Assembly (NCBI GenBank): GCA_964352335.1
Contig: CAYGRO010000001.1
Location: 125,942 to 189,941, forward strand
Direction: 5' to 3'
DNA length: 64,000 nucleotides
Source of the DNA: an uncultured Gammaproteobacteria bacterium
GTDB taxonomy: Bacteria; Patescibacteriota; Patescibacteriia; VMEV01; CAYQCH01
Positions 1-60,652 of the stretch are shown here, in pieces; positions within the stretch are counted from its first letter, which is position 1, and every line of letters starts with the position of its first letter. Made by a program: the position numbers and the translations under genes. The notes beneath the pieces were generated by a model. It made no database searches. It had not been told where the DNA came from and saw only the letters and a program-made list of their open reading frames with translations.

Positions 1-466
1 CCCGGTGCCAGATGGCGTAAGATCCCTTCTTGGGGTCGCGCTCGGACGTGACCACGAGGTCATCATCCATGAACTTCCACGACGGGAAGAGCTCGGCGCC
101 CCTCTTGTAGAGCCTCTCGGCCGTCATGTCGCCGGCCATGACGAGCAGCCGCCCCAGACCGACGCGCGTCTCGGGGATGCGGAGGTCGGAGAAGCTCAGC
201 TCGAGTCCGTAGATCTCGAGGTAGAAAGACTCCCACCAGCGGAGCTGGTCGCGGACATCGTCCTCACAGACCGTCATCTTGCGGGCGTCCCGCGAAACGA
301 TGAGGTCGGCGATCCGCTCGAGGATGTCCTTCCCATCCGGCGTTGCCAGACGGTGGATGTCCTCGTCGGTTCCCCCCTTCATCCGCACAGTCTCGACGAG
401 GCTAGTGATGATGCCGGTGGCGAGCCCCATCCCACTAACGATTGACGACACGTTCTTCTTGGCCAT
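1..466 (-). CDS. hypothetical protein, 5' part only (ORF runs off the window start); high-GC cassette
   Basis: ATG at 466 on the minus strand gives an open frame (MAKKNVSSIVSGMGLATG...) with no stop before position 1. GC is about 60% against a 35% background. The listed + strand ORF 5..445 is its antisense shadow. Confidence 0.4.
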   Translation of the reverse strand, partial: MAKKNVSSIVSGMGLATGIITSLVETVRMKGGTDEDIHRLATPDGKDILERIADLIVSRDARKMTVCEDDVRDQLRWWESFYLEIYGLELSFSDLRIPETRVGLGRLLVMAGDMTAERLYKRGAELFPSWKFMDDDLVVTSERDPKKGSYAIWHR

Positions 467-970
467 TGGTATGGCTCTCCTTCTCTTTTGGCTCGTCCCT
501 CATCTCCACACACCATGCGCGGAGACCCCAGACGAGCCTCGTTCAATGACAGATTTTAACGCAAAATATGCGCTAAAATCTGCCATTGAGTGATTGTAAA
601 GAACAACGAAATAATATAACACGAATTGGACAAAAAAGCAAGCACAGGCCTATTTTTTTCTAATTAAAAAAAATGCATTTGGGCTCCGGGCATTCACCCC
701 TTTTCAGCCAGAGGCTGATCCGCCTTTGGAGGAAATTCCCCTCTGCCCTCCGCCCAAAAAGAAAAATTTTGTTTTGCTTCATTTGAAGAAAAGCTATTAA
801 ATGCAAAAAGGAATGATAAAAAATGTACGTCGTACAACAGCGCCTAAGCGACAAGCCTTTGCTCCGATGATCCGAATAGCCTATCATCTACGCAAAGGCG
901 CGTCGCCTAGGCGCGAACGTTGTCGGTCATTAATTTGTTTTTTCTCTAAATAAAGCTTTTAATTTGTAGT

Positions 971-2459: not shown

Positions 2460-3191
2460 CTACTTAACCAACCTCGTCTCAACCGTACTTAACAATTCCG
2501 TCGCAAATTCAAAATTAGCAAATAATGCTAATGAATTGGTAAACACCAAAATCCCTAAAATAATTAAAAGCGCACCAAACGCACCATTAATATATTTAAC
2601 GTATTTAGAAAATTTGCTAATAAATTTAGCGGCTGGGCTAGCAAATAATCCCACCAATAAAAATGGGATCCCTAAACCTAGTGCGTAAACAAGTAGTAAG
2701 CTAAAGGCGGCACCTGGTTGTGTTGCAGCCAATCCTAATATCGCTCCTAATACTGCACCAACACAAGGAGTCCAACCAGCAGCAAAGGCGGCACCAAAGA
2801 CAAATGATGTGAGATATTTTGAATTGAATTTTTTCTTTACTCTAAACTTATGTTCTTTTTCTAAGGCAGAAATTTTAATAAGTCCTGTTAAGTAAAGCCC
2901 AAAGAAAATAATTATAACACCACCAACTCGCCCCGCCCAAAGAGTGGCATCATAAGCGACTGAAGCTAAAATGGTATTTAAGATAACTCCGAGTAAGGCA
3001 AAAATGACCGAGAAACCTAAAACAAAAAAGAGACTATTTACAAAAATAGCCAGTCGATGATTTTTAGATTCGTCTAAAGACGTTCCTGCGAGATACGATA
3101 AAAAACCAGGAATAATTGGTAGAACACAAGGAGATAAAAAAGAAACAAGCCCCGCTAAAAAAGCGATAAAAAAACCAAATTCAGAATACAT
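2460..3191 (-). CDS. ccdA: cytochrome c-type biogenesis protein CcdA (DsbD-like thiol-disulfide transporter)
   Basis: Polytopic membrane protein with Cys in TM1 (SPCVLPIIPGFLSY) and a second Cys (WTPCVGAVLGAIL). Confidence 0.75.
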   Translation of the reverse strand: MYSEFGFFIAFLAGLVSFLSPCVLPIIPGFLSYLAGTSLDESKNHRLAIFVNSLFFVLGFSVIFALLGVILNTILASVAYDATLWAGRVGGVIIIFFGLYLTGLIKISALEKEHKFRVKKKFNSKYLTSFVFGAAFAAGWTPCVGAVLGAILGLAATQPGAAFSLLLVYALGLGIPFLLVGLFASPAAKFISKFSKYVKYINGAFGALLIILGILVFTNSLALFANFEFATELLSTVETRLVK

Positions 3192-3223: not shown

Positions 3224-3442
3224 TTATTCTAAGTTATTTTGTAATTGAAAGCGAACCAATTCTTTGCCGTCTTGCTCAACAGGCTGTAAAAAAAGATCTA
3301 GAGGCCTTGCCCAAATTTTTTCTGGTTCCTGAATATTTTGATACACAACCATCTCTTCTAAACTCTCTGAATGTTTGGCTAATGCAAGAATTTTATATTC
3401 TCCCCCTTTATAGTGTTTATACATTTGTCCTATTTCTATCAT
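3224..3442 (-). CDS. DUF1653 family protein
   Basis: YKHYKGGEYKI signature motif. The overlapping + strand ORF 3214..3444 is rejected. Confidence 0.55.
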   Translation of the reverse strand: MIEIGQMYKHYKGGEYKILALAKHSESLEEMVVYQNIQEPEKIWARPLDLFLQPVEQDGKELVRFQLQNNLE

Positions 3443-3453
3443 AAAACCTCGAT

Positions 3454-3861
3454 CTAAATGATTTCTTCTTCCTCTTCTTCAGGTTCTTCGCCTAATAAAA
3501 TTTCTGATGAATGAAGCATTTCTTTAACTAGTCGAGCTCCTTTCATTTGTTTATCGGTAAGCTTTTCTTTATATTGTTTTAATTCTCGCCCTACTTCATC
3601 TTTAAGGGCATCTATTGCGGCATACAAATCGGCATGCACAGCTTCTGCACTTATTAATTGACCTGGTACATCAATATTTGCCTCTGCTTTATAAACATCG
3701 CCTTTTTGATGATGATTTGTTGTTCGTTCTAATAAAATATCAACCGATGCATGTGTCCCTTCTGGTAAAAATTTTGATAACTCTGTTATTTTATTCCACG
3801 CATATTCTCGAATTGGCTCTGTTAACTCCATGTGATTAGCCTGTATTTTATTGAGCTTCAT
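3454..3861 (-). CDS. hpf: ribosome hibernation promoting factor (RaiA/HPF family)
   Basis: N-terminal YfiA/HPF fold sequence (MKLNKIQANHMELTEPIREY...) with an acidic C-terminal tail. Confidence 0.85.
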   Translation of the reverse strand: MKLNKIQANHMELTEPIREYAWNKITELSKFLPEGTHASVDILLERTTNHHQKGDVYKAEANIDVPGQLISAEAVHADLYAAIDALKDEVGRELKQYKEKLTDKQMKGARLVKEMLHSSEILLGEEPEEEEEEII

Positions 3862-3959
3862 AGATTTTAAATCAATGGTTATCTACCCCATTATACAATT
3901 TTTCCAAAGAAATGTCTCAAGCCCCTTGTCATCCCCAAGTAGGCGGGAGTGACAAAAAG

Positions 3960-4829
3960 CTATTTCTGACAACTCACACAAAAATGGGTTCCTCGCCCGG
4001 CTAATTTGGTTTTTTGAATATAATCATCTCCACATCGATCACATCTTTCCCCTTCTCGTCCATAGACTTTTAGATAATCAATATACCCGCCTTTTTTTCC
4101 AGAAGCATCAACAAAATTGGAAAATGTCGTACCACGTTTGGCAACCGCTTGTTCTAAAATAGTATTGCAAGCAGTAAAAAGTCTTTTCTTTTCTGGCCGG
4201 GTAAGCATATTAACCAATCGATCTGGTAGAATTTTAGCTCGATAACAAATTTCATCTGCATAAATATTTCCAATACCTGCAATAACTTGTTGATTGAGTA
4301 AAAGCGCTTTAAGAGAAGTTTTTCTGCGTTCAAATAGGTTTTCAAAAGCCTCCCAAGTAAAATCTAATGTTAATGGTTCAATGCCAAATTTGCTCAAAGC
4401 TGTGGCTGTTTGCACTTCATTGGCGAGATGAAGATATCCAAAGGTTCGTATATCATTAAAATAGAGAATAGATTCATCTGCAAAGTGAATGGCAATATGC
4501 GTATATTGATTTGGCAATTCATCAATCTTTGCCATCGGATGCCCACCGACAATAAGACCGCCAGGAATTTGGCAAATAAGTTGTCCAGTCATTTTTAAAT
4601 GAATCAGAAGTGTTTTATCACCATAGGCAAGCTCAAAAAATAAGAGTTTTCCTCTACGTCTTACTTGTTCAAATCTATTTCCTTCCAAGACGGAAATAAA
4701 TTCTTTTTCGTCATTTTTAAGACAACGCCCAGTTAGCGCTTCTACTTTACGAATGCCTTTTCCTAAAATGGCATATTGTAAATCTCTTCGAATGGTTTCT
4801 ACTTCTGGCAATTCAGGCATAATCGACAA
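3960..4829 (-). CDS. mutM: formamidopyrimidine-DNA glycosylase
   Basis: N-terminal PELPEVE catalytic motif and a C-terminal zinc finger CxxC...CxxC. Confidence 0.9.
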   Translation of the reverse strand: MSIMPELPEVETIRRDLQYAILGKGIRKVEALTGRCLKNDEKEFISVLEGNRFEQVRRRGKLLFFELAYGDKTLLIHLKMTGQLICQIPGGLIVGGHPMAKIDELPNQYTHIAIHFADESILYFNDIRTFGYLHLANEVQTATALSKFGIEPLTLDFTWEAFENLFERRKTSLKALLLNQQVIAGIGNIYADEICYRAKILPDRLVNMLTRPEKKRLFTACNTILEQAVAKRGTTFSNFVDASGKKGGYIDYLKVYGREGERCDRCGDDYIQKTKLAGRGTHFCVSCQK

Positions 4830-4877
4830 TTAACTTAGTTCGCCTATTTTACCTGTTTTTTTAATAAAATCAACTAC

Positions 4878-4906
4878 TTGCGAATCCCTTTTGTGATTGC
4901 TATTAT
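4878..4906 (+). promoter_or_regulatory. sigma70-like promoter, TTGCGA-17-TATTAT
   Basis: -35 at 4878-4883, 17-nt spacer, -10 at 4901-4906. No CDS lies downstream. Confidence 0.45.
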
Positions 4907-4913
4907 ATTTTTC

Positions 4914-5360
4914 AGGACTAAGTGACCCTGGACACTCCTGACATACTTAGCTTCTACCTAAGTTGATTCCAGTAACATAACATGGAGTATCGTGAAGCTG
5001 AACTTCCAAATTGGTAGCATGAAAAGCTACCACACCACGACGTTCGCAATCAGCACCCACTGAACCGCCAAGTCCCAAGGAAAGGAGGTGCCGTTGAAGA
5101 GCTCGATCTTTGACAGTTACTGACTCCCTCACTTGAAGCGCATACATGCGCTTCCACCGAAGCAGCCTAAAAAGGCTGGAAAGGAGGAAAATCATACCTT
5201 ACACTACAGAAGGCAGTTGCTCATCAACGAGTAGCACTATCTTCGGCTAGCGAAGGCCGCACAACCTAACGGCCGACCTGACAACAGCAGTACAAATCTC
5301 GCTGTATACTCGTCGGCCGTAACACAAAAGAGACATCTGATAAGATGTCTCTTTTGTTTG
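4914..5360 (+). ncRNA. unclassified structured non-coding RNA, about 440 nt
   Basis: Promoter upstream and a rho-independent terminator at the end. About 50% GC in a 35% GC genome. Several perfect hairpins, for example gaagcgcat-ac-atgcgcttc and ggtagc-atgaaaa-gctacc. No convincing ORF. Confidence 0.45.
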
Positions 5361-5366
5361 TTTTGA
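5327..5366 (+). terminator. rho-independent terminator
   Basis: aaaagagacatc / tgataa / gatgtctctttt, a 12-bp perfect stem, followed by gtttgttttg. Confidence 0.65.
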
Positions 5367-5374
5367 TGTTTTGT

Positions 5375-7372
5375 TTATTGGTTTTGAATAACAGGGTCTA
5401 AAATAATTGAACCATAATGCATGGTAACAAAAACTTTGTATTTCCCACTTGAATCTGGTTTAAAGTAAAAACCTAATCCAAGGCTATTCCAATCTTCGTG
5501 GTAAATTGTTCGATAATGATCACCATTTGTTGCAGCTTCAGAAAGAAAGAATGCTAAGGTATCATCTAATACTTTTTTTACAGATTCTGTTGAACCATCT
5601 GCGATCCCCCATGCAATATTTTCTGTAAAGTAATTATCATTCCACCCACCTTCACTATGACGAACTGTCCATTGTAAACCTTTTGTTTCAATCCATTGGT
5701 GCATGCTTTTTCCATCTGGGCGAGTATGCGTTGCAGAATTAATAGAACCCATATATCCAGCCCATTCAGAAGCAGTATTTACCCAACGTTGTTCTAATGT
5801 TAATTCACGTAAATCTTTTTCTGCTCGTAGGTTATTTATTTTTCCTGCCCAATATTCATTTAAAGCAATCAAATCTACTCCTTGTGGAATCGTACCTGCT
5901 TGATAAGGACTTTCTTGTACACCAGAAGTTACAAGCCCTTGTACATTTAATACAATTTCATTGCTATAAATATCACAAGCATCTCCAGTATAACGACAAA
6001 CTCTAAAATAATATTTACCTGCAGGCATATTTACTTTTCTAAACTCAAAAGCATTTGGGTCTGCGATATAGATAGAAGAATTTTCTGGATACGTTGGTAA
6101 TTGATCAATTGAATAAACAATTTTATATCCTAAAGAAGAATCTAAGCTTGTTTTTTGCCAACTCAACTTTACAACATCATTTTCTAATACGCCTGATAAT
6201 TGAATAGATCCACCAGGAAGAACCGAAGAACCATCGTTTTCAGAAATAAATATTTTTATATCATTACTATAAACACCACATGTTTTTCCTGTATATTGGC
6301 AAATACGGAAATGGTACTCTCGCCCATCACTTGCTACTTTAAATGCCATTTTTCTTATTTTTTCATCGTCTACAAAAATGGCAGTATCCTCAGAAAGTGT
6401 TGGATTCACTTTTGTACCATAAACTATTTTAAATCCTCGTGAAACATTTGTTTGGTTTACTGACCAGGAAAGATGAACAGTATTATCAATCAATTGACCA
6501 CTTAAACCAATGCTTCCAAAAACTTCTAATTCATCATCTTCTGGGATTTCATTTTTTACATCAGGAATTTCTTCTCCTCGTTTTTCGGCAAGAAAAACAT
6601 CAAAACTTTCAAAAGAAATTTCTTCTAAATCCTTATTAGAAATACCTAAACTAAGCTCTCGCATAATGCGATATGCTTCTGCCCCATCTTTTAGATAATG
6701 AACTGATAAATCTGTTGGATTAATATAATACGCTTCTCCATGAAGCTCTACAGCTAAAACAATTTTTCCTTTTACTTGTGTTGCTAATGTTTTATCTCCA
6801 GCTAGTAATCGATTAATATCTGCTGTAGAAGCACCTAAACCAAATTCACGCATCATTTGATAAGCAGTCGCTCCATCTTTCATATAAAAACGACGTCCAT
6901 CATCTGGATGCACATACCATGCTTCCCCATGATTTTCTACTTGGAGCAAAATATAACCACGAAGCTTTCTTGAAAGCTCAGTGTCTTTCACTTCATTTGA
7001 TGAAGTTGTTTCTTTGGCTTGCGTTGTTTCAATTTTCACAGCATCACCCTTTTCACCTGTAAATTGACGACCAGTAACCGTAATAAATGTATTCCAAACA
7101 TATCCTTTTCTTCCATCTTTCATTAATACAAGGTACCAACCATCTGCTTCTCCAATAATATCGACGGTAAGTCCTGCAGAAATACTTCCAACTGTGGAAC
7201 TATCCATACAAGTCATATCTCGCATATTAACGGTTGAGTTAACGGAACCAGTCCATTTAACGGTTGTAACAGGTTCTGTACAACTTCCTGCTTGTGCTTG
7301 AATAACCAAGCTTGCTGAGAGCAATAAAGTGCTCATCAAAGCGATACTCAGTCCTAAAATGCGCTTATTCAT
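5375..7372 (-). CDS. secreted multidomain protein: signal peptide, SH3b-like, two ~50-aa repeats, two FN3-like repeats, C-terminal CAP/SCP (YkwD-like) domain
   Basis: Signal peptide MNKRILGLSIALMSTLLLSASLVIQAQA. Internal repeated modules. C-terminal CAP motifs HTRPDG and ENIAWG. Confidence 0.6.
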   Translation of the reverse strand: MNKRILGLSIALMSTLLLSASLVIQAQAGSCTEPVTTVKWTGSVNSTVNMRDMTCMDSSTVGSISAGLTVDIIGEADGWYLVLMKDGRKGYVWNTFITVTGRQFTGEKGDAVKIETTQAKETTSSNEVKDTELSRKLRGYILLQVENHGEAWYVHPDDGRRFYMKDGATAYQMMREFGLGASTADINRLLAGDKTLATQVKGKIVLAVELHGEAYYINPTDLSVHYLKDGAEAYRIMRELSLGISNKDLEEISFESFDVFLAEKRGEEIPDVKNEIPEDDELEVFGSIGLSGQLIDNTVHLSWSVNQTNVSRGFKIVYGTKVNPTLSEDTAIFVDDEKIRKMAFKVASDGREYHFRICQYTGKTCGVYSNDIKIFISENDGSSVLPGGSIQLSGVLENDVVKLSWQKTSLDSSLGYKIVYSIDQLPTYPENSSIYIADPNAFEFRKVNMPAGKYYFRVCRYTGDACDIYSNEIVLNVQGLVTSGVQESPYQAGTIPQGVDLIALNEYWAGKINNLRAEKDLRELTLEQRWVNTASEWAGYMGSINSATHTRPDGKSMHQWIETKGLQWTVRHSEGGWNDNYFTENIAWGIADGSTESVKKVLDDTLAFFLSEAATNGDHYRTIYHEDWNSLGLGFYFKPDSSGKYKVFVTMHYGSIILDPVIQNQ

Positions 7373-20689: not shown

Positions 20690-20718
20690 TTGACAAAAAT
20701 GAGCATTTATGATATTGT
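20690..20718 (+). promoter_or_regulatory. sigma70-like promoter, TTGACA-17-TATTGT
   Basis: Sequence match only. Confidence 0.35.
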
Positions 20719-20724
20719 CTTCAA

Positions 20725-21086
20725 ACGTTCGTAAAGAAGTGAGTTGTTGCGTTATTTGCTCAAAAAAGGAAACCCTGTCTCATTTGAGATGACTTCTGTC
20801 ATGAGAACTACCTCGTTGGTACTTCTCCAGATTCCGAGTAAAGACAAGACGAATCCTTTTGAACGAACCACCTTCTCCATTGCCTAAGAACAATCGAGAA
20901 GGGACAGACTTACTGCCGAGACGTTCACCCCCCTTAGAGAAGGAAATCCTCTCCCTGTTGGAGAAAAACACTGGTTGGTGTTAGGGAGATTCGTGAGCCT
21001 GGTCCCCAAGACCCGCTCATGTTGGGGTGTCGCAGTAAACCTCTGTTTCAGCGCCGTCGATTCATTTCGAGGGCGCTTTCTTTTTG
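20725..21086 (+). ncRNA. candidate non-coding transcript, about 360 nt, class unknown
   Basis: Promoter to terminator (agcgccgtcga-ttcatt-tcgagggcgct followed by TTTCTTTTTG). No ORF of 60 aa or more on this strand. GC elevated. Confidence 0.3.
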
Positions 21087-21391
21087 TAAAAAAACATTAA
21101 GGTAAATTGACAAAAACACCCACCAATGCTACATTATGAACACGAAGCAATTCGTTTCTCTCTCGTCTAGCTCCTCTCGCAGGTGCTTTTTTTTTGAGAG
21201 GAATACAATACATGAGTGAGCCGACGAGAAGTCCAAAACGTCAGTGCCTGAAGGTTGGAGTAACTATGTACTAGTCCGAAACTTGGTCGTAGTAATACGG
21301 CGGAGAAGTACGATACTAGCCCGTAACGGTACGTAGAGACAAAGACTGAACAAGCCCAGTATACATAACTGCTTGTTCGGCTCACTCGCCC

Positions 21392-21464
21392 GTGGATGTA
21401 GCTTAACAGGGAGAGCACGTCATCAAAAGTGACGAAGGTAGGGGTTCGAGACCCTTCATCCACA
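21392..21464 (+). tRNA. tRNA-like gene with non-canonical anticodon loop UCAAAAG (C33, anticodon AAA if read conventionally)
   Basis: Perfect 7-bp acceptor GTGGATG/CATCCAC. D-loop has A14, G18, G19, A21. Anticodon stem CGTCA/TGACG. T-arm AGGGG-TTCGAGA-CCCTT. Confidence 0.5.
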
Positions 21465-24712: not shown

Positions 24713-24831
24713 TTGTTACAACTGACAATTGACCACTGACAACGGACTGATTCCCCTTCTCGCAACGGAGTTGATTCTATTTCTAGATCAAGATTCTAGA
24801 CTTAGAGTGCGACTGCGTCGCGGGGATGCCG

Positions 24832-25220
24832 GGAATCGATAGGAGGATTCTTTAACAACAAGGCATGTCGAGGTTGATAGATTTTCCTCGTAAATACAGA
24901 TCTATCTAATGATAAGTGCAAAAACACTTACACGCGCTAAAAACGTTCTTGCTAATGCATTTTCGTTCAGCGCGGTTCCAGTTTTAGCCTAAGCGCTTAA
25001 AACTCATCGACTCTCTGACGTCTTCTAGGAGTCAGTCGGTGCCATATCAGAAGACTGGGTTACATTTGTTCCCTCACTTGTAACTAAGAAAATTGGGATA
25101 AGGATTCTGTCATTTTGTTTGTCTTAAGGCAGCATCCCGAAAATTTAGGACAAACTAAACATGTAGTCTTCTTGATTAAAACCTAACTACACGGGGGTTC
25201 AACTCCCCCCATCTCCACCA
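24832..25220 (+). ncRNA. ssrA: transfer-messenger RNA (tmRNA)
   Basis: 5' GGGGAUGCCGGGAAUCGAUAGG and 3' GGGGGUUCAACUCCCCCCAUCUCCACCA. G3:U70 acceptor pair. Located immediately downstream of smpB. Candidate tag ORF ends ...AVPVLA followed by UAA. Confidence 0.8.
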
Positions 25221-26217: not shown

Positions 26218-26925
26218 TCATGGTGCTAGCGGTGGGTTTTTGTTTTGTTTTTTTAAATTTTGCAAATCTTCATTCCATTTGTTTACATTGTTAATGATAT
26301 ATCTCCTCGCATTAAATAAATGGGTTTCATTTCGAATAATTGTTTCATGATAATTTCGTTGCCATATTATTCCATCAAATCCAGACAACCGAGCCTCACG
26401 CGTAACCGCAGATTTATATGACCGAATAATGGCCGATAATGAACCAGGTTTAATCACGCCATATGCCGGCACACACCCCACCCGGGAATGATTCGTACGC
26501 CAACGGCGACGGAGGGGCGCAGCATGCTGCGCCCCTCCGTCGCCGTTGGCGTCATCGGGTTTGGCGCGTGGGGTGTGTGCCGGCTGGTGATCAACATGAT
26601 TCTTGATATGAATCATCGCATGCACATGGTCGGGCATGATAATAAATTCATCAACAACAACATTTGGAAAATGGTTCGGTATTTCTTGTAAAAACCTTTC
26701 TGCAATTTCACCATATTTTGATAAATTCATTTTGCCGTTTTTTATGTGACCAAATAACCTTAATCGATCTTTGGTACAAATCGTGACAAAATAATATCCG
26801 ATCGAACAATAATCATGCATTCGTAACCGAATTGATCTTCTCCCACCATCTCGCATAAAAAATACCCCACAGCAATAGCATTGATGTGAGGTGCTTATAT
26901 TATACCATACCCATTGACACCCCAC
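26218..26925 (-). CDS. REP-associated tyrosine transposase (RAYT) / IS200-like Y1 HuH transposase
   Basis: Motifs YCSIGYYFVTICTKDR, HuH MPDHVHAMIH and catalytic Tyr region IWQRNYHETIIRNE...YIINN. The true start is probably internal (MRDGG... or MHDYC...). Confidence 0.7.
   Translation of the reverse strand: MGCQWVWYNISTSHQCYCCGVFFMRDGGRRSIRLRMHDYCSIGYYFVTICTKDRLRLFGHIKNGKMNLSKYGEIAERFLQEIPNHFPNVVVDEFIIMPDHVHAMIHIKNHVDHQPAHTPRAKPDDANGDGGAQHAAPLRRRWRTNHSRVGCVPAYGVIKPGSLSAIIRSYKSAVTREARLSGFDGIIWQRNYHETIIRNETHLFNARRYIINNVNKWNEDLQNLKKQNKNPPLAP
26464..26588. repeat. GC-rich perfect palindrome embedded in-frame in the RAYT gene
   Basis: Outer gccggcacacaccccac / gtggggtgtgtgccggc. Inner 52-bp perfect palindrome gccaacggcgacggaggggcgcagcatgctgcgcccctccgtcgccgttggc. 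It carries the same CCCCTCC/GGAGGGG arms as the intergenic REP-like family. Confidence 0.6.
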
Positions 26926-42524: not shown

Positions 42525-42882
42525 GTAAACAACAGATCAAACCAAAAACTACTCGTGTACTCACTAGTAGTTTTTTTGTAAAAAAATGAATAATCCACCA
42601 TGCGCTAAATGGGGTCCGGGGTAGTCGTGCTTCTGGGAACAAAAATCGGTGCAAGAACATACAAGAAGCTTCTACTACCCCGGCGACTTTTTTGCTTCGT
42701 TTTTTGGTCGCTCAAAAAATGAAGGCCCGTGCGGCGAGCACAATGACAAACCCTCAATCTAGTCAAAACAAAAACGAGCTCGCATTGAGCTCATTTTTAT
42801 TCCTCAAAGAAAAACGAATTTCTCTCTAAGGGACGGGCGAGATCAAAGCGTGGGGCTTCGATCTCATCCCTTCTGTAATGTG

Positions 42883-60292: not shown

Positions 60293-60652
60293 ATGAGTGG
60301 GCGGAAATATCAACAATTAGAAAACCGAACAACGGAATTTGCAAGAAATGTTGTTCGGTTTTCATATACTTTAAAAAATGACTTTTTGATCAAACCAATA
60401 CTGCTACAAATAGTTCGATCATCATCGTCAATTGGAGCAAACTATCATGAAATGAATGAATCTAGAACAATTAAAGAAAAAATACATATACTCTCCATCA
60501 TCAAACGTGAGATAAATGAAACAGTTCACTGGCTCTCTATTCTAGAAGTAGCAGAAAATGTTAATAAAACAAGACTCACCTCCTTAAAAGCTGAATGCAA
60601 AGAACTAAAAAATATTTTTGTCACAATCCTATTTGCACTAAAACGAAAATAA
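60293..60652 (+). CDS. four-helix-bundle protein (23S rRNA intervening-sequence protein family)
   Basis: IVRSSSSIGANYHE motif. Flanked by AT-rich inverted repeats at 60228..60260 and 60655..60700. Confidence 0.7.
   Translation: MSGRKYQQLENRTTEFARNVVRFSYTLKNDFLIKPILLQIVRSSSSIGANYHEMNESRTIKEKIHILSIIKREINETVHWLSILEVAENVNKTRLTSLKAECKELKNIFVTILFALKRK

Follow-up and report, generated by a model that had tools for sequence, protein, structure and literature searches.

We analyzed a 64-kb window, the whole 64,000-nt stretch of contig CAYGRO010000001.1 introduced above, with attention to the element at 4878–5366, which lies between fpg and a gene for a secreted-type protein with a CAP domain. An original prediction, read by eye from the letters, had described this element as an unclassified structured non-coding RNA of ∼440 nt with a promoter and a strong terminator, and as either a divergent housekeeping RNA or a novel large RNA. 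The overall GC content of the window is 38%, and its Fpg protein has its nearest named homologs in entries annotated as Patescibacteria or Candidatus Parcubacteria. The element and the genes on either side comprise the following features:

3960–4820, minus strand: fpg (Fpg/MutM)
4846–4873, minus strand: fpg promoter TTGATT-16-TAAAAT, found by promoter scan, at the left edge of the insert
4878–4906, plus strand: promoter-like site of the element, TTGCGA (4878–4883)-17-TATTAT (4901–4906), with a TG-extended −10, back to back with the fpg promoter
4913–5322, plus strand: putative RNA body of ∼410 nt, GC 0.49, A-rich and T-poor, with about ten predicted hairpins
4947–5195, minus strand: 82-amino-acid (aa) orphan open reading frame (ORF), entered as a gene in public records (P0121)
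5079–5088, plus strand: Shine–Dalgarno (SD)-like box 1, GGAAAGGAGG
5178–5187, plus strand: SD-like box 2, GGAAAGGAGG
5324–5366, both strands: bidirectional intrinsic terminator, a perfect 15-bp stem (5324–5338/5343–5357) with loop GATA and a T-rich tail
5375–7372, minus strand: CAP-domain gene, 665-aa secreted-type protein with SH3, fn3 and CAP domains

The promoter-like site and the terminator bracket the GC-rich body in the correct order and at the correct spacing. The promoter TTGCGA-17-TATTAT proposed at 4878 is present and has, in addition, a TG at 4898–4899 preceding its −10 hexamer; transcription would start at ∼4913–4914. Elsewhere in the window, a similar TG-extended promoter-like site precedes a tRNA by ∼100 nt. 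The terminator hairpin is also present, although its stem is longer than the 12 bp originally claimed (perfect over 15 bp, 5324–5357), with TTGTTTTG directly 3′ of the stem and the stop codon of the CAP-domain gene at 5375–5377 (minus strand). GC content is 0.455–0.50 across 4900–5300 versus 0.32–0.36 in the flanks, in agreement with the predicted ∼50% GC body in a ∼35% GC context. Near the two insert ends, at 4885–4895 and 5323–5333, lies an 11-nt imperfect inverted repeat (91% complementary). No credible ORF was found on the plus strand, as predicted, but the longest frames there, of 33 and 34 aa (5133–5234 and 5146–5250), exceed the few codons allowed for; minus-strand ORFs reach 82, 35, and 31 aa.

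Relatives were represented by DNA fetched around Fpg homologs of falling identity (88% to 66%), each locus spanning 4–9 kb, and absence of the element refers to the syntenic site. CAP-domain gene, fpg, and hpf follow one another in this order in eight related lineages, and in most of the loci fetched the series continues with DUF1653 and/or DsbD-type genes. The corresponding genes beyond fpg in the window are:

3454–3861, minus strand: hpf, a hibernation-factor homolog
3224–3442, minus strand: 72-aa ORF, whose counterparts in relatives' loci are DUF1653 proteins
2460–3191, minus strand: 243-aa ORF, occupying the place of the relatives' DsbD-type genes

The element sequence is absent from the CAP/fpg site in all related lineages fetched. 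Three of them show a bare gap of 110–165 nt and the rest unrelated inserts, and the gap between the two genes holds the following (percentages are Fpg identities):

Window: gap of ∼550 nt, holding the element
L001 (88%): gap of 164 nt, terminator only
L002–L004 (81%): gap of 319 nt, a ∼200-nt unit with TTGACG-17-GATAAT, a GC-rich body and a terminator
L005 (71%): gap of 108 nt to the called, N-terminally extended start; a palindrome resembling repetitive extragenic palindromic (REP) sequences
P0007 contig (69%): gap of 112 nt, compared by gap length
L166 (68%): gap of at least 643 nt (contig end), a ∼430-nt unit
L165 (67%): gap of 300 nt, a long hairpin
L006 (66%): gap of 109 nt, compared by gap length

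The L166 unit (62–529, minus strand) has the orientation of the element, a TTGACC-17-TACCAT promoter-like site, a GC-rich, ORF-poor body, and its own terminator, and terminators insulate it on both sides. It carries the 11-mer GAAAGGAGGTG of the element together with two further AAGGAG motifs. The L002 unit (3698–3930, minus strand) contains a GGAC-GAAA-GUCC hairpin, a CCUCCUU stretch, and a strong terminator; the public record calls a 102-aa gene over this unit, probably spuriously. The REP-like palindrome of L005, CGTCATTCTGAGCGAAACGAAG...CTTCGCTTACGCTCAGAATGACG, lies at the same intergenic site (3950–4030, minus strand). Rfam 15 returned hairpin noise only on the L002 region, L165, and L166, both at the gathering score and at E ≤ 10, and conserved columns of a four-way alignment are confined to the fpg promoter block (4846–4873). 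Judged from these comparisons, the element is an insert peculiar to its lineage, at a site where different sequences have been acquired repeatedly. The absence from the syntenic site in relatives means, therefore, that the locus holds no conserved housekeeping RNA. On the far side of the CAP-domain gene, the DNA of relatives is GC-rich and variable in gene content.

Homolog searches elsewhere reach near-identical sequences or ones that keep exact motifs. The protein collection contains no Fpg more than 88% identical other than the window genome's own, and exact-protein look-ups for closer strains (Fpg, the DUF1653 protein, and the 82-aa ORF) led to run ERR3534985 only. That run provides the only other copy found, a Logan contig of 3,407 nt that matches the element and both flanks at 100% identity; because this independent contig is identical, the element sequence is real. 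When the 82-aa ORF was used as a pseudo-protein with degenerate patterns, 599 matches in GTDB, 600 in JGI metagenomes, and 103 in IMG/VR were obtained, none of them confirmed. The two-box pattern GGAAAGGAGG-N75-105-GGAAAGGAGG occurs in 34 viral and at least 119 GTDB stretches, and nhmmer detected no similarity beyond the boxes among the matches listed. Exact 20–21-mers from three hairpins gave no viral match and two chance metagenome matches, blastn against phage and plasmid collections gave no match, and the 64-kb window holds no second copy or fragment of the element.

We also compared the element with known RNA families. In the whole window, Rfam 15 at the gathering score recovers only transfer-messenger RNA (tmRNA; 24822–25220), which is thus located elsewhere, as had been stated, and three tRNAs. 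At E ≤ 10, the region 4750–5450 yields terminator-type noise at 9–21 bits, mostly on the terminator hairpin, and ARAGORN finds no tRNA or tmRNA in 4700–5500. The RNase P models (RNaseP_bact_a and RNaseP_bact_b) match neither in the window at the gathering score nor in 4750–5450 at E ≤ 10. With two to three mismatches allowed, the RNase P P4 strands GGAAAGUCCGG and ACAGAAnCCGGCUUA do not occur inside 4878–5366, and counts of P4-type strings across the window are at or below chance. The Rfam models for 6S RNA, signal recognition particle (SRP) RNA, and tmRNA (typical length 100–400 nt) do not match the element, and those for OLE, ROOL, GOLLD, HEARO, raiA, and other large non-coding RNAs do not match even at E ≤ 10. 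On the evidence of these scans, the element belongs to no curated RNA family, which bears out both its earlier description as unclassified and the failure to recognize RNase P, SRP, or 6S RNA by eye.

Several other identities were considered and dropped: a retron, TIGR, or CRISPR array (the element is without repeats), an IscB/TnpB omega-RNA or bridge RNA (no recombinase or nuclease gene adjoins), a type I toxin–antitoxin system (no small hydrophobic ORF was seen among translations judged by eye), and an rRNA fragment (the sole likeness is 11 nt that match the 16S tail complement).

The two AAGGAGG-like boxes noted earlier are the only occurrences of GGAAAGGAGG on either strand of the 64-kb window, and they stand 99 nt apart. 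Assuming a canonical 16S 3′ tail (the host's own 16S rRNA gene lies outside the window), GAAAGGAGGTG at 5080–5090 in box 1 is an 11-nt perfect complement of that tail and GAAAGGAGG at 5179 in box 2 a 9-nt perfect complement. Matches of at least 9 nt to the tail complement occur at four places in 128 kb (both strands), two of them in the element; one of the two others, at 60576, is antisense inside a 119-aa ORF. The GGAGGUG part of box 1 is predicted to pair with GCACC at 5053–5057. Box 2 forms the 3′ strand of a predicted stem with UUCCACC (5152–5158), enclosing a CAGCC/GGCUG hairpin. The genes of the window rarely show more than 4–5 nt of SD complementarity, even at the best of six candidate starts.

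The boxes are not confined to the element. On the promoter-defined strand of the four inserts at the site, AAGGAG occurs six times versus 0.84 expected, a count reached in 0 of 2,000 dinucleotide shuffles, and the inserts of the relatives alone contain four versus 0.64 expected (P = 0.004). Because of this enrichment, SD-like boxes are a non-random trait common to otherwise unrelated units.

Folding of the body (4913–5322) gave a minimum free energy of −129 kcal/mol on the plus strand (z −5.23, with none of 100 dinucleotide shuffles as good) and z −2.27 on the minus strand. An independent shuffler returned z −3.99 versus −1.93, and inclusion of the terminator gave z −6.4 (plus) and −4.5 (minus). 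Predicted hairpins include GGUAGC/GCUACC (5013–5031), GAAGCGCA/UGCGCUUC (5135–5154), and ACGGCCGAC/GUCGGCCGU (5269–5320). The L166 unit has z −3.4 on its promoter strand versus −1.8 on the opposite one, and the L002 unit z −3.2; in a coarser scan of the window, the element ranks fourth of 146 window-strands. As far as folding models go, the strand asymmetry favors a plus-strand RNA, an indication that is weakened by matched controls.

We tentatively favor the reading that the element is a strain-specific accessory transcription unit encoding a structured non-coding RNA of ∼450 nt, with the SD-like boxes as its likely contacts, and regard this as possible rather than probable. Positions 4878–5322 would then be a ∼445-bp strain-specific, GC-rich accessory insert between the CAP-gene terminator and the fpg promoter. 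The insert would act as a self-contained plus-strand unit, transcribed from its own TG-extended sigma-70-type promoter with a start at ∼4913 and a stop at the shared terminator. Its ORF-poor body of ∼410 nt would fold into about ten hairpins, and the SD-like boxes, each half-masked by an upstream C-rich strand, would serve as contact sites of the RNA. The boxes could bind the 16S rRNA 3′ tail in 30S subunits, as the STAB-SD element does in stabilizing an RNA, or alternatively a protein that recognizes SD-like sequences. The anatomy of the insert, its absence from relatives, and the enrichment of boxes are directly observed; transcription, the fold, and any binding are inferred. As a single sequence, the element cannot yet be promoted to a new RNA class.

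Several observations weigh against this reading. The promoter matches 9 of 12 positions, and such sites are common in AT-rich DNA; the 1-kb region holds four promoter-like sites versus 2.0 ± 1.4 in shuffles, so that the promoter alone is not significant. The terminator also ends the minus-strand CAP-domain gene, and terminators stand at the matching position in L001, L002, and L005; because relatives without the element also have a terminator at that spot, it is not specific evidence for an RNA. With ∼13 other islands of GC ≥ 0.45 in the window, the GC rise is not unique. The tmRNA, folded as a 410-nt segment, reaches only z −2.8, and z-scores of −5 to −7 are reached, on one strand or on both, by several GC-rich, ORF-bearing segments of the window. 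The GC-rich compartment of this genome thus folds well in general; folding z-scores do not discriminate within the window, and that of the element is not exceptional among GC-rich islands.

Comparative support for an RNA is likewise lacking. No homologs with compensatory base-pair changes were found in the collections searched, and the element, a single sequence in two identical assemblies, offers no variation. Nucleotide alignment, shared k-mers, and six-frame translated comparison of the four site inserts gave no significant similarity. As for the boxes, the predicted ensemble has each of them partly paired with a C-rich strand upstream, and opening them would cost 6.7–7.9 kcal/mol. According to one report, only 48% of Parcubacteria 16S genes have a detectable anti-SD motif (PMC9297842), a figure in line with the weak SD sequences of the window genes. 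Finally, GC-rich DNA is common in the genome, partly coding, and seemingly equipped with strong SD sequences of its own, and the boxes could be relics of foreign ribosome-binding sites.

This last point leads to a rival reading that we consider a real possibility, if a doubtful one: the element may be a remnant of GC-rich DNA, horizontally acquired or mobile, that now lies inert in an intergenic insertion hot spot, its promoter, hairpins, and boxes being leftovers of foreign small genes. The absence of the element from the site in relatives and the unrelated inserts found there, including the REP-like palindrome of L005, are consistent with such an origin, as are the many GC-rich islands of the window, which generally fold far better than their own shuffles, and the variable GC-rich DNA beyond the CAP-domain gene in relatives. 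A GC-rich unit after the tmRNA has a strong AAGGAGG followed by an ATG, while SD sequences of native genes are weak, and an IS200/RAYT-like remnant lies at 26218–26925. However, a decayed gene might leave a translated match to some protein, and none was found in any frame. The folding asymmetry favors the promoter strand in both the element and L166, three independent inserts each have a promoter-like site at the correct end, and the SD core is enriched specifically on the strand set by the promoters.

The genome itself is a patchwork: DNA of ∼35% GC, in which genes have weak SD sequences or none, is interspersed with ∼14 islands at 45–65% GC. Many of these islands are hairpin-rich, and a few island ORFs have stronger SD-like sequences.

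A second rival takes the boxes at face value, as genuine ribosome-binding sites for tiny peptides in a small mRNA whose remainder is a structured untranslated region. A TTG start (5094) located 5 nt downstream of box 1 opens a 9-codon ORF, MKSSIFDSY. In L166, GAAAGGAGGTG is followed after 9 nt by the ATG of an 18-codon ORF (MKKKTFDRDTKKIPIGGH), and in L002 an AAGGAG is followed after 6 nt by the ATG of an 8-codon ORF; the element and L166 peptides have M-K-x-x-x-F-D in common. We nevertheless think a small mRNA unlikely: box 2 has no canonical start codon after it, ORFs of 8–18 codons are of chance length, a start codon 4–10 nt after the motif is expected by chance in an estimated ∼25% of cases, the peptides show no significant similarity, and native window genes largely do without SD sequences.

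Equally improbable, in our view, is that the site hosts one fast-evolving RNA gene that is conserved in position (∼450 nt in the element, ∼430 nt in L166, ∼200 nt in L002), its common trait being strand-specific SD-like boxes rather than sequence, and that may titrate 30S subunits or an SD-binding protein. The setting of the CAP/fpg site is one in which the genes of the lineage are largely without SD sequences and hpf adjoins fpg.

Sponge RNAs of the CsrB/RsmZ type, which would titrate a CsrA-like protein through A(N)GGA/CAAGGA motifs, are stand-alone promoter-to-terminator units of widely variable length and sequence. AGGA is enriched in the element (5 versus 1.8 expected, P = 0.03) and in L166 (9 versus 2.9, P = 0.002), all four inserts at the site contain CAAGGA, and csrA is reported to be highly expressed in ultra-small groundwater prokaryotes (PMC9938205). 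Against a sponge, which we rate as very unlikely, L002 and L165 contain a single AGGA each, total GGA is not enriched in the element (8 versus 5.7 expected), the GGA motifs lie outside hairpin loops in the predicted fold, and tblastn detected no CsrA homolog within the 64-kb window.

The 82-aa minus-strand ORF (4947–5195), which the original prediction had called atypical, has a hydrophobic N-terminus and an open frame and is called as a gene publicly, yet it is scarcely credible as a real orphan protein gene. Its sole match among 5.8 billion protein clusters is itself, an exhaustive HMMER scan of 1.84 billion representatives returned the self-match only, it has no Pfam domain, and its ribosome-binding site, judged by eye, is weak. 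The promoter scan shows no minus-strand promoter-like site between the ORF and the upstream terminator, and by a rough estimate an open stretch of this length occurs in about one-third of 450-nt sequences at 50% GC when six frames are read. The ORF is most likely spurious.

A divergent RNase P, 6S, or SRP RNA that the Rfam models fail to recognize, the housekeeping alternative of the original prediction, is one to which we attach almost no credence: at ∼410–450 nt the unit is similar in length to RNase P RNA, and it comes with a promoter and a terminator of its own, but Rfam is empty at E ≤ 10, the P4-type signatures are absent from the element, the sequence is missing at the syntenic site in the Fpg 88%, 71%, 69%, and 66% lineages and replaced by unrelated sequence in the 81%, 68%, and 67% lineages, and no homolog was found in GTDB representatives (among the matches listed for the two-box scan), JGI metagenomes, or IMG/VR.

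The window contains other GC-rich or hairpin-bearing segments. A second unit with the layout of the element lies at 20690–21095 (plus strand), with TTGACA-17-TATTGT, a TG-extended −10, ∼370 nt of GC-rich, ORF-less DNA, and a hairpin with a T-run near 21050–21095; it has no Rfam match at E ≤ 1 and folds with z −5.9 on the plus strand versus −3.3 on the minus strand. At 21107–21390 (plus strand), another consensus promoter (TTGACA-17-TACATT) precedes a short hairpin and its T9 run; next comes a GC-rich stretch of ∼185 nt whose ends pair (GAGTGAGCCGA...TCGGCTCACTC), just upstream of the tRNA genes at 21392 and 21473; it falls into no Rfam class.

Directly after the tmRNA terminator, the segment 25228–26925 begins with a promoter (TTGACA-17-TATCGT) followed by AAGGAGG and a 3-codon ORF. 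Beyond these come ∼450 nt of GC-rich DNA with many hairpins, an ORF of 120 aa, and one of 235 aa that has a weak IS200/RAYT-like match. The 235-aa ORF holds a perfect 56-nt palindrome (26497–26552) nested in a 20-nt inverted repeat. A mobile element that entered at the 3′ end of the tmRNA probably accounts for this segment, unless it reflects a fold-back in the assembly.

A small hairpin RNA candidate, GGGGTCCGGGGTAGT...ACTACCCCGG followed by a T6 run and a second hairpin, is conserved between the window (42608–42781, plus strand) and L165 (3383–3557, minus strand), with 76% identity (nhmmer E 2.7e-10). One stem position is changed on both sides (A:T to G:C). The candidate stands in a different context in L165, between fpg and hpf, and matches no Rfam class at the gathering score.

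If transcribed and functional, the element would join the small number of large structured RNAs so far proposed for Patescibacteria, a group with an almost unexplored RNA biology, and would exemplify an RNA that mimics SD sequences in a lineage where SD usage is weak. For now, its lesson is mainly a negative, methodological one: since GC-rich accessory DNA with many hairpins is common in this genome, elevated GC, good folding, and a promoter followed by a terminator are insufficient to identify a conserved RNA here. Annotation of the element as RNase P, 6S, or another housekeeping RNA should be avoided.

STAB-SD is among the known systems closest to the element. The STAB-SD element of Bacillus thuringiensis cry3Aa mRNA has the sequence GAAAGGAGG, and this 9-mer is contained in both boxes of the element. 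In STAB-SD, an SD sequence acts far from any start codon, and it is proposed to bind 30S subunits and to block ribonucleases (PMC12970973). The element resembles this arrangement in having an SD sequence that does not serve initiation at any neighboring gene and a perfect 16S-tail complement away from a start codon (GAAAGGAGGTG at 5080 and GAAAGGAGG at 5179, a canonical tail being assumed). STAB-SD, however, belongs to a processed mRNA, in which it lies close to the 5′ end and is followed by a long coding region, whereas the boxes of the element would lie 165 and 265 nt into the transcript and be partly base-paired. No plus-strand gene follows downstream, the transcript would end at 5324–5357, and the host may even lack an anti-SD (PMC9297842).

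CsrB and RsmX/Y/Z are likewise stand-alone promoter-to-terminator units of 110–370 nt with low sequence conservation and repeated SD-like GGA motifs, and the element and L166 are AGGA-enriched. The motifs of the element are far fewer than those of CsrB and RsmX/Y/Z and lie outside hairpin loops in the predicted fold, no Rfam model matches, and no CsrA gene was found in the window. With OLE, ROOL, GOLLD, HEARO, and raiA, some of which are at times carried on accessory or mobile DNA, the element shares size class, a GC content high for its genome, many hairpins, and the absence of an ORF; those families are defined by many covarying homologs, whereas the element has none. Unlike REP sequences and miniature inverted-repeat transposable elements (MITEs), the element has its own promoter, no second copy in the 64-kb window, and no definable target-site duplication. 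It nonetheless resembles REP/MITE insertions in being a strain-variable insert between a terminator and a promoter, at a site where L005 has a REP-like palindrome, and in carrying an 11-nt imperfect inverted repeat near both ends.

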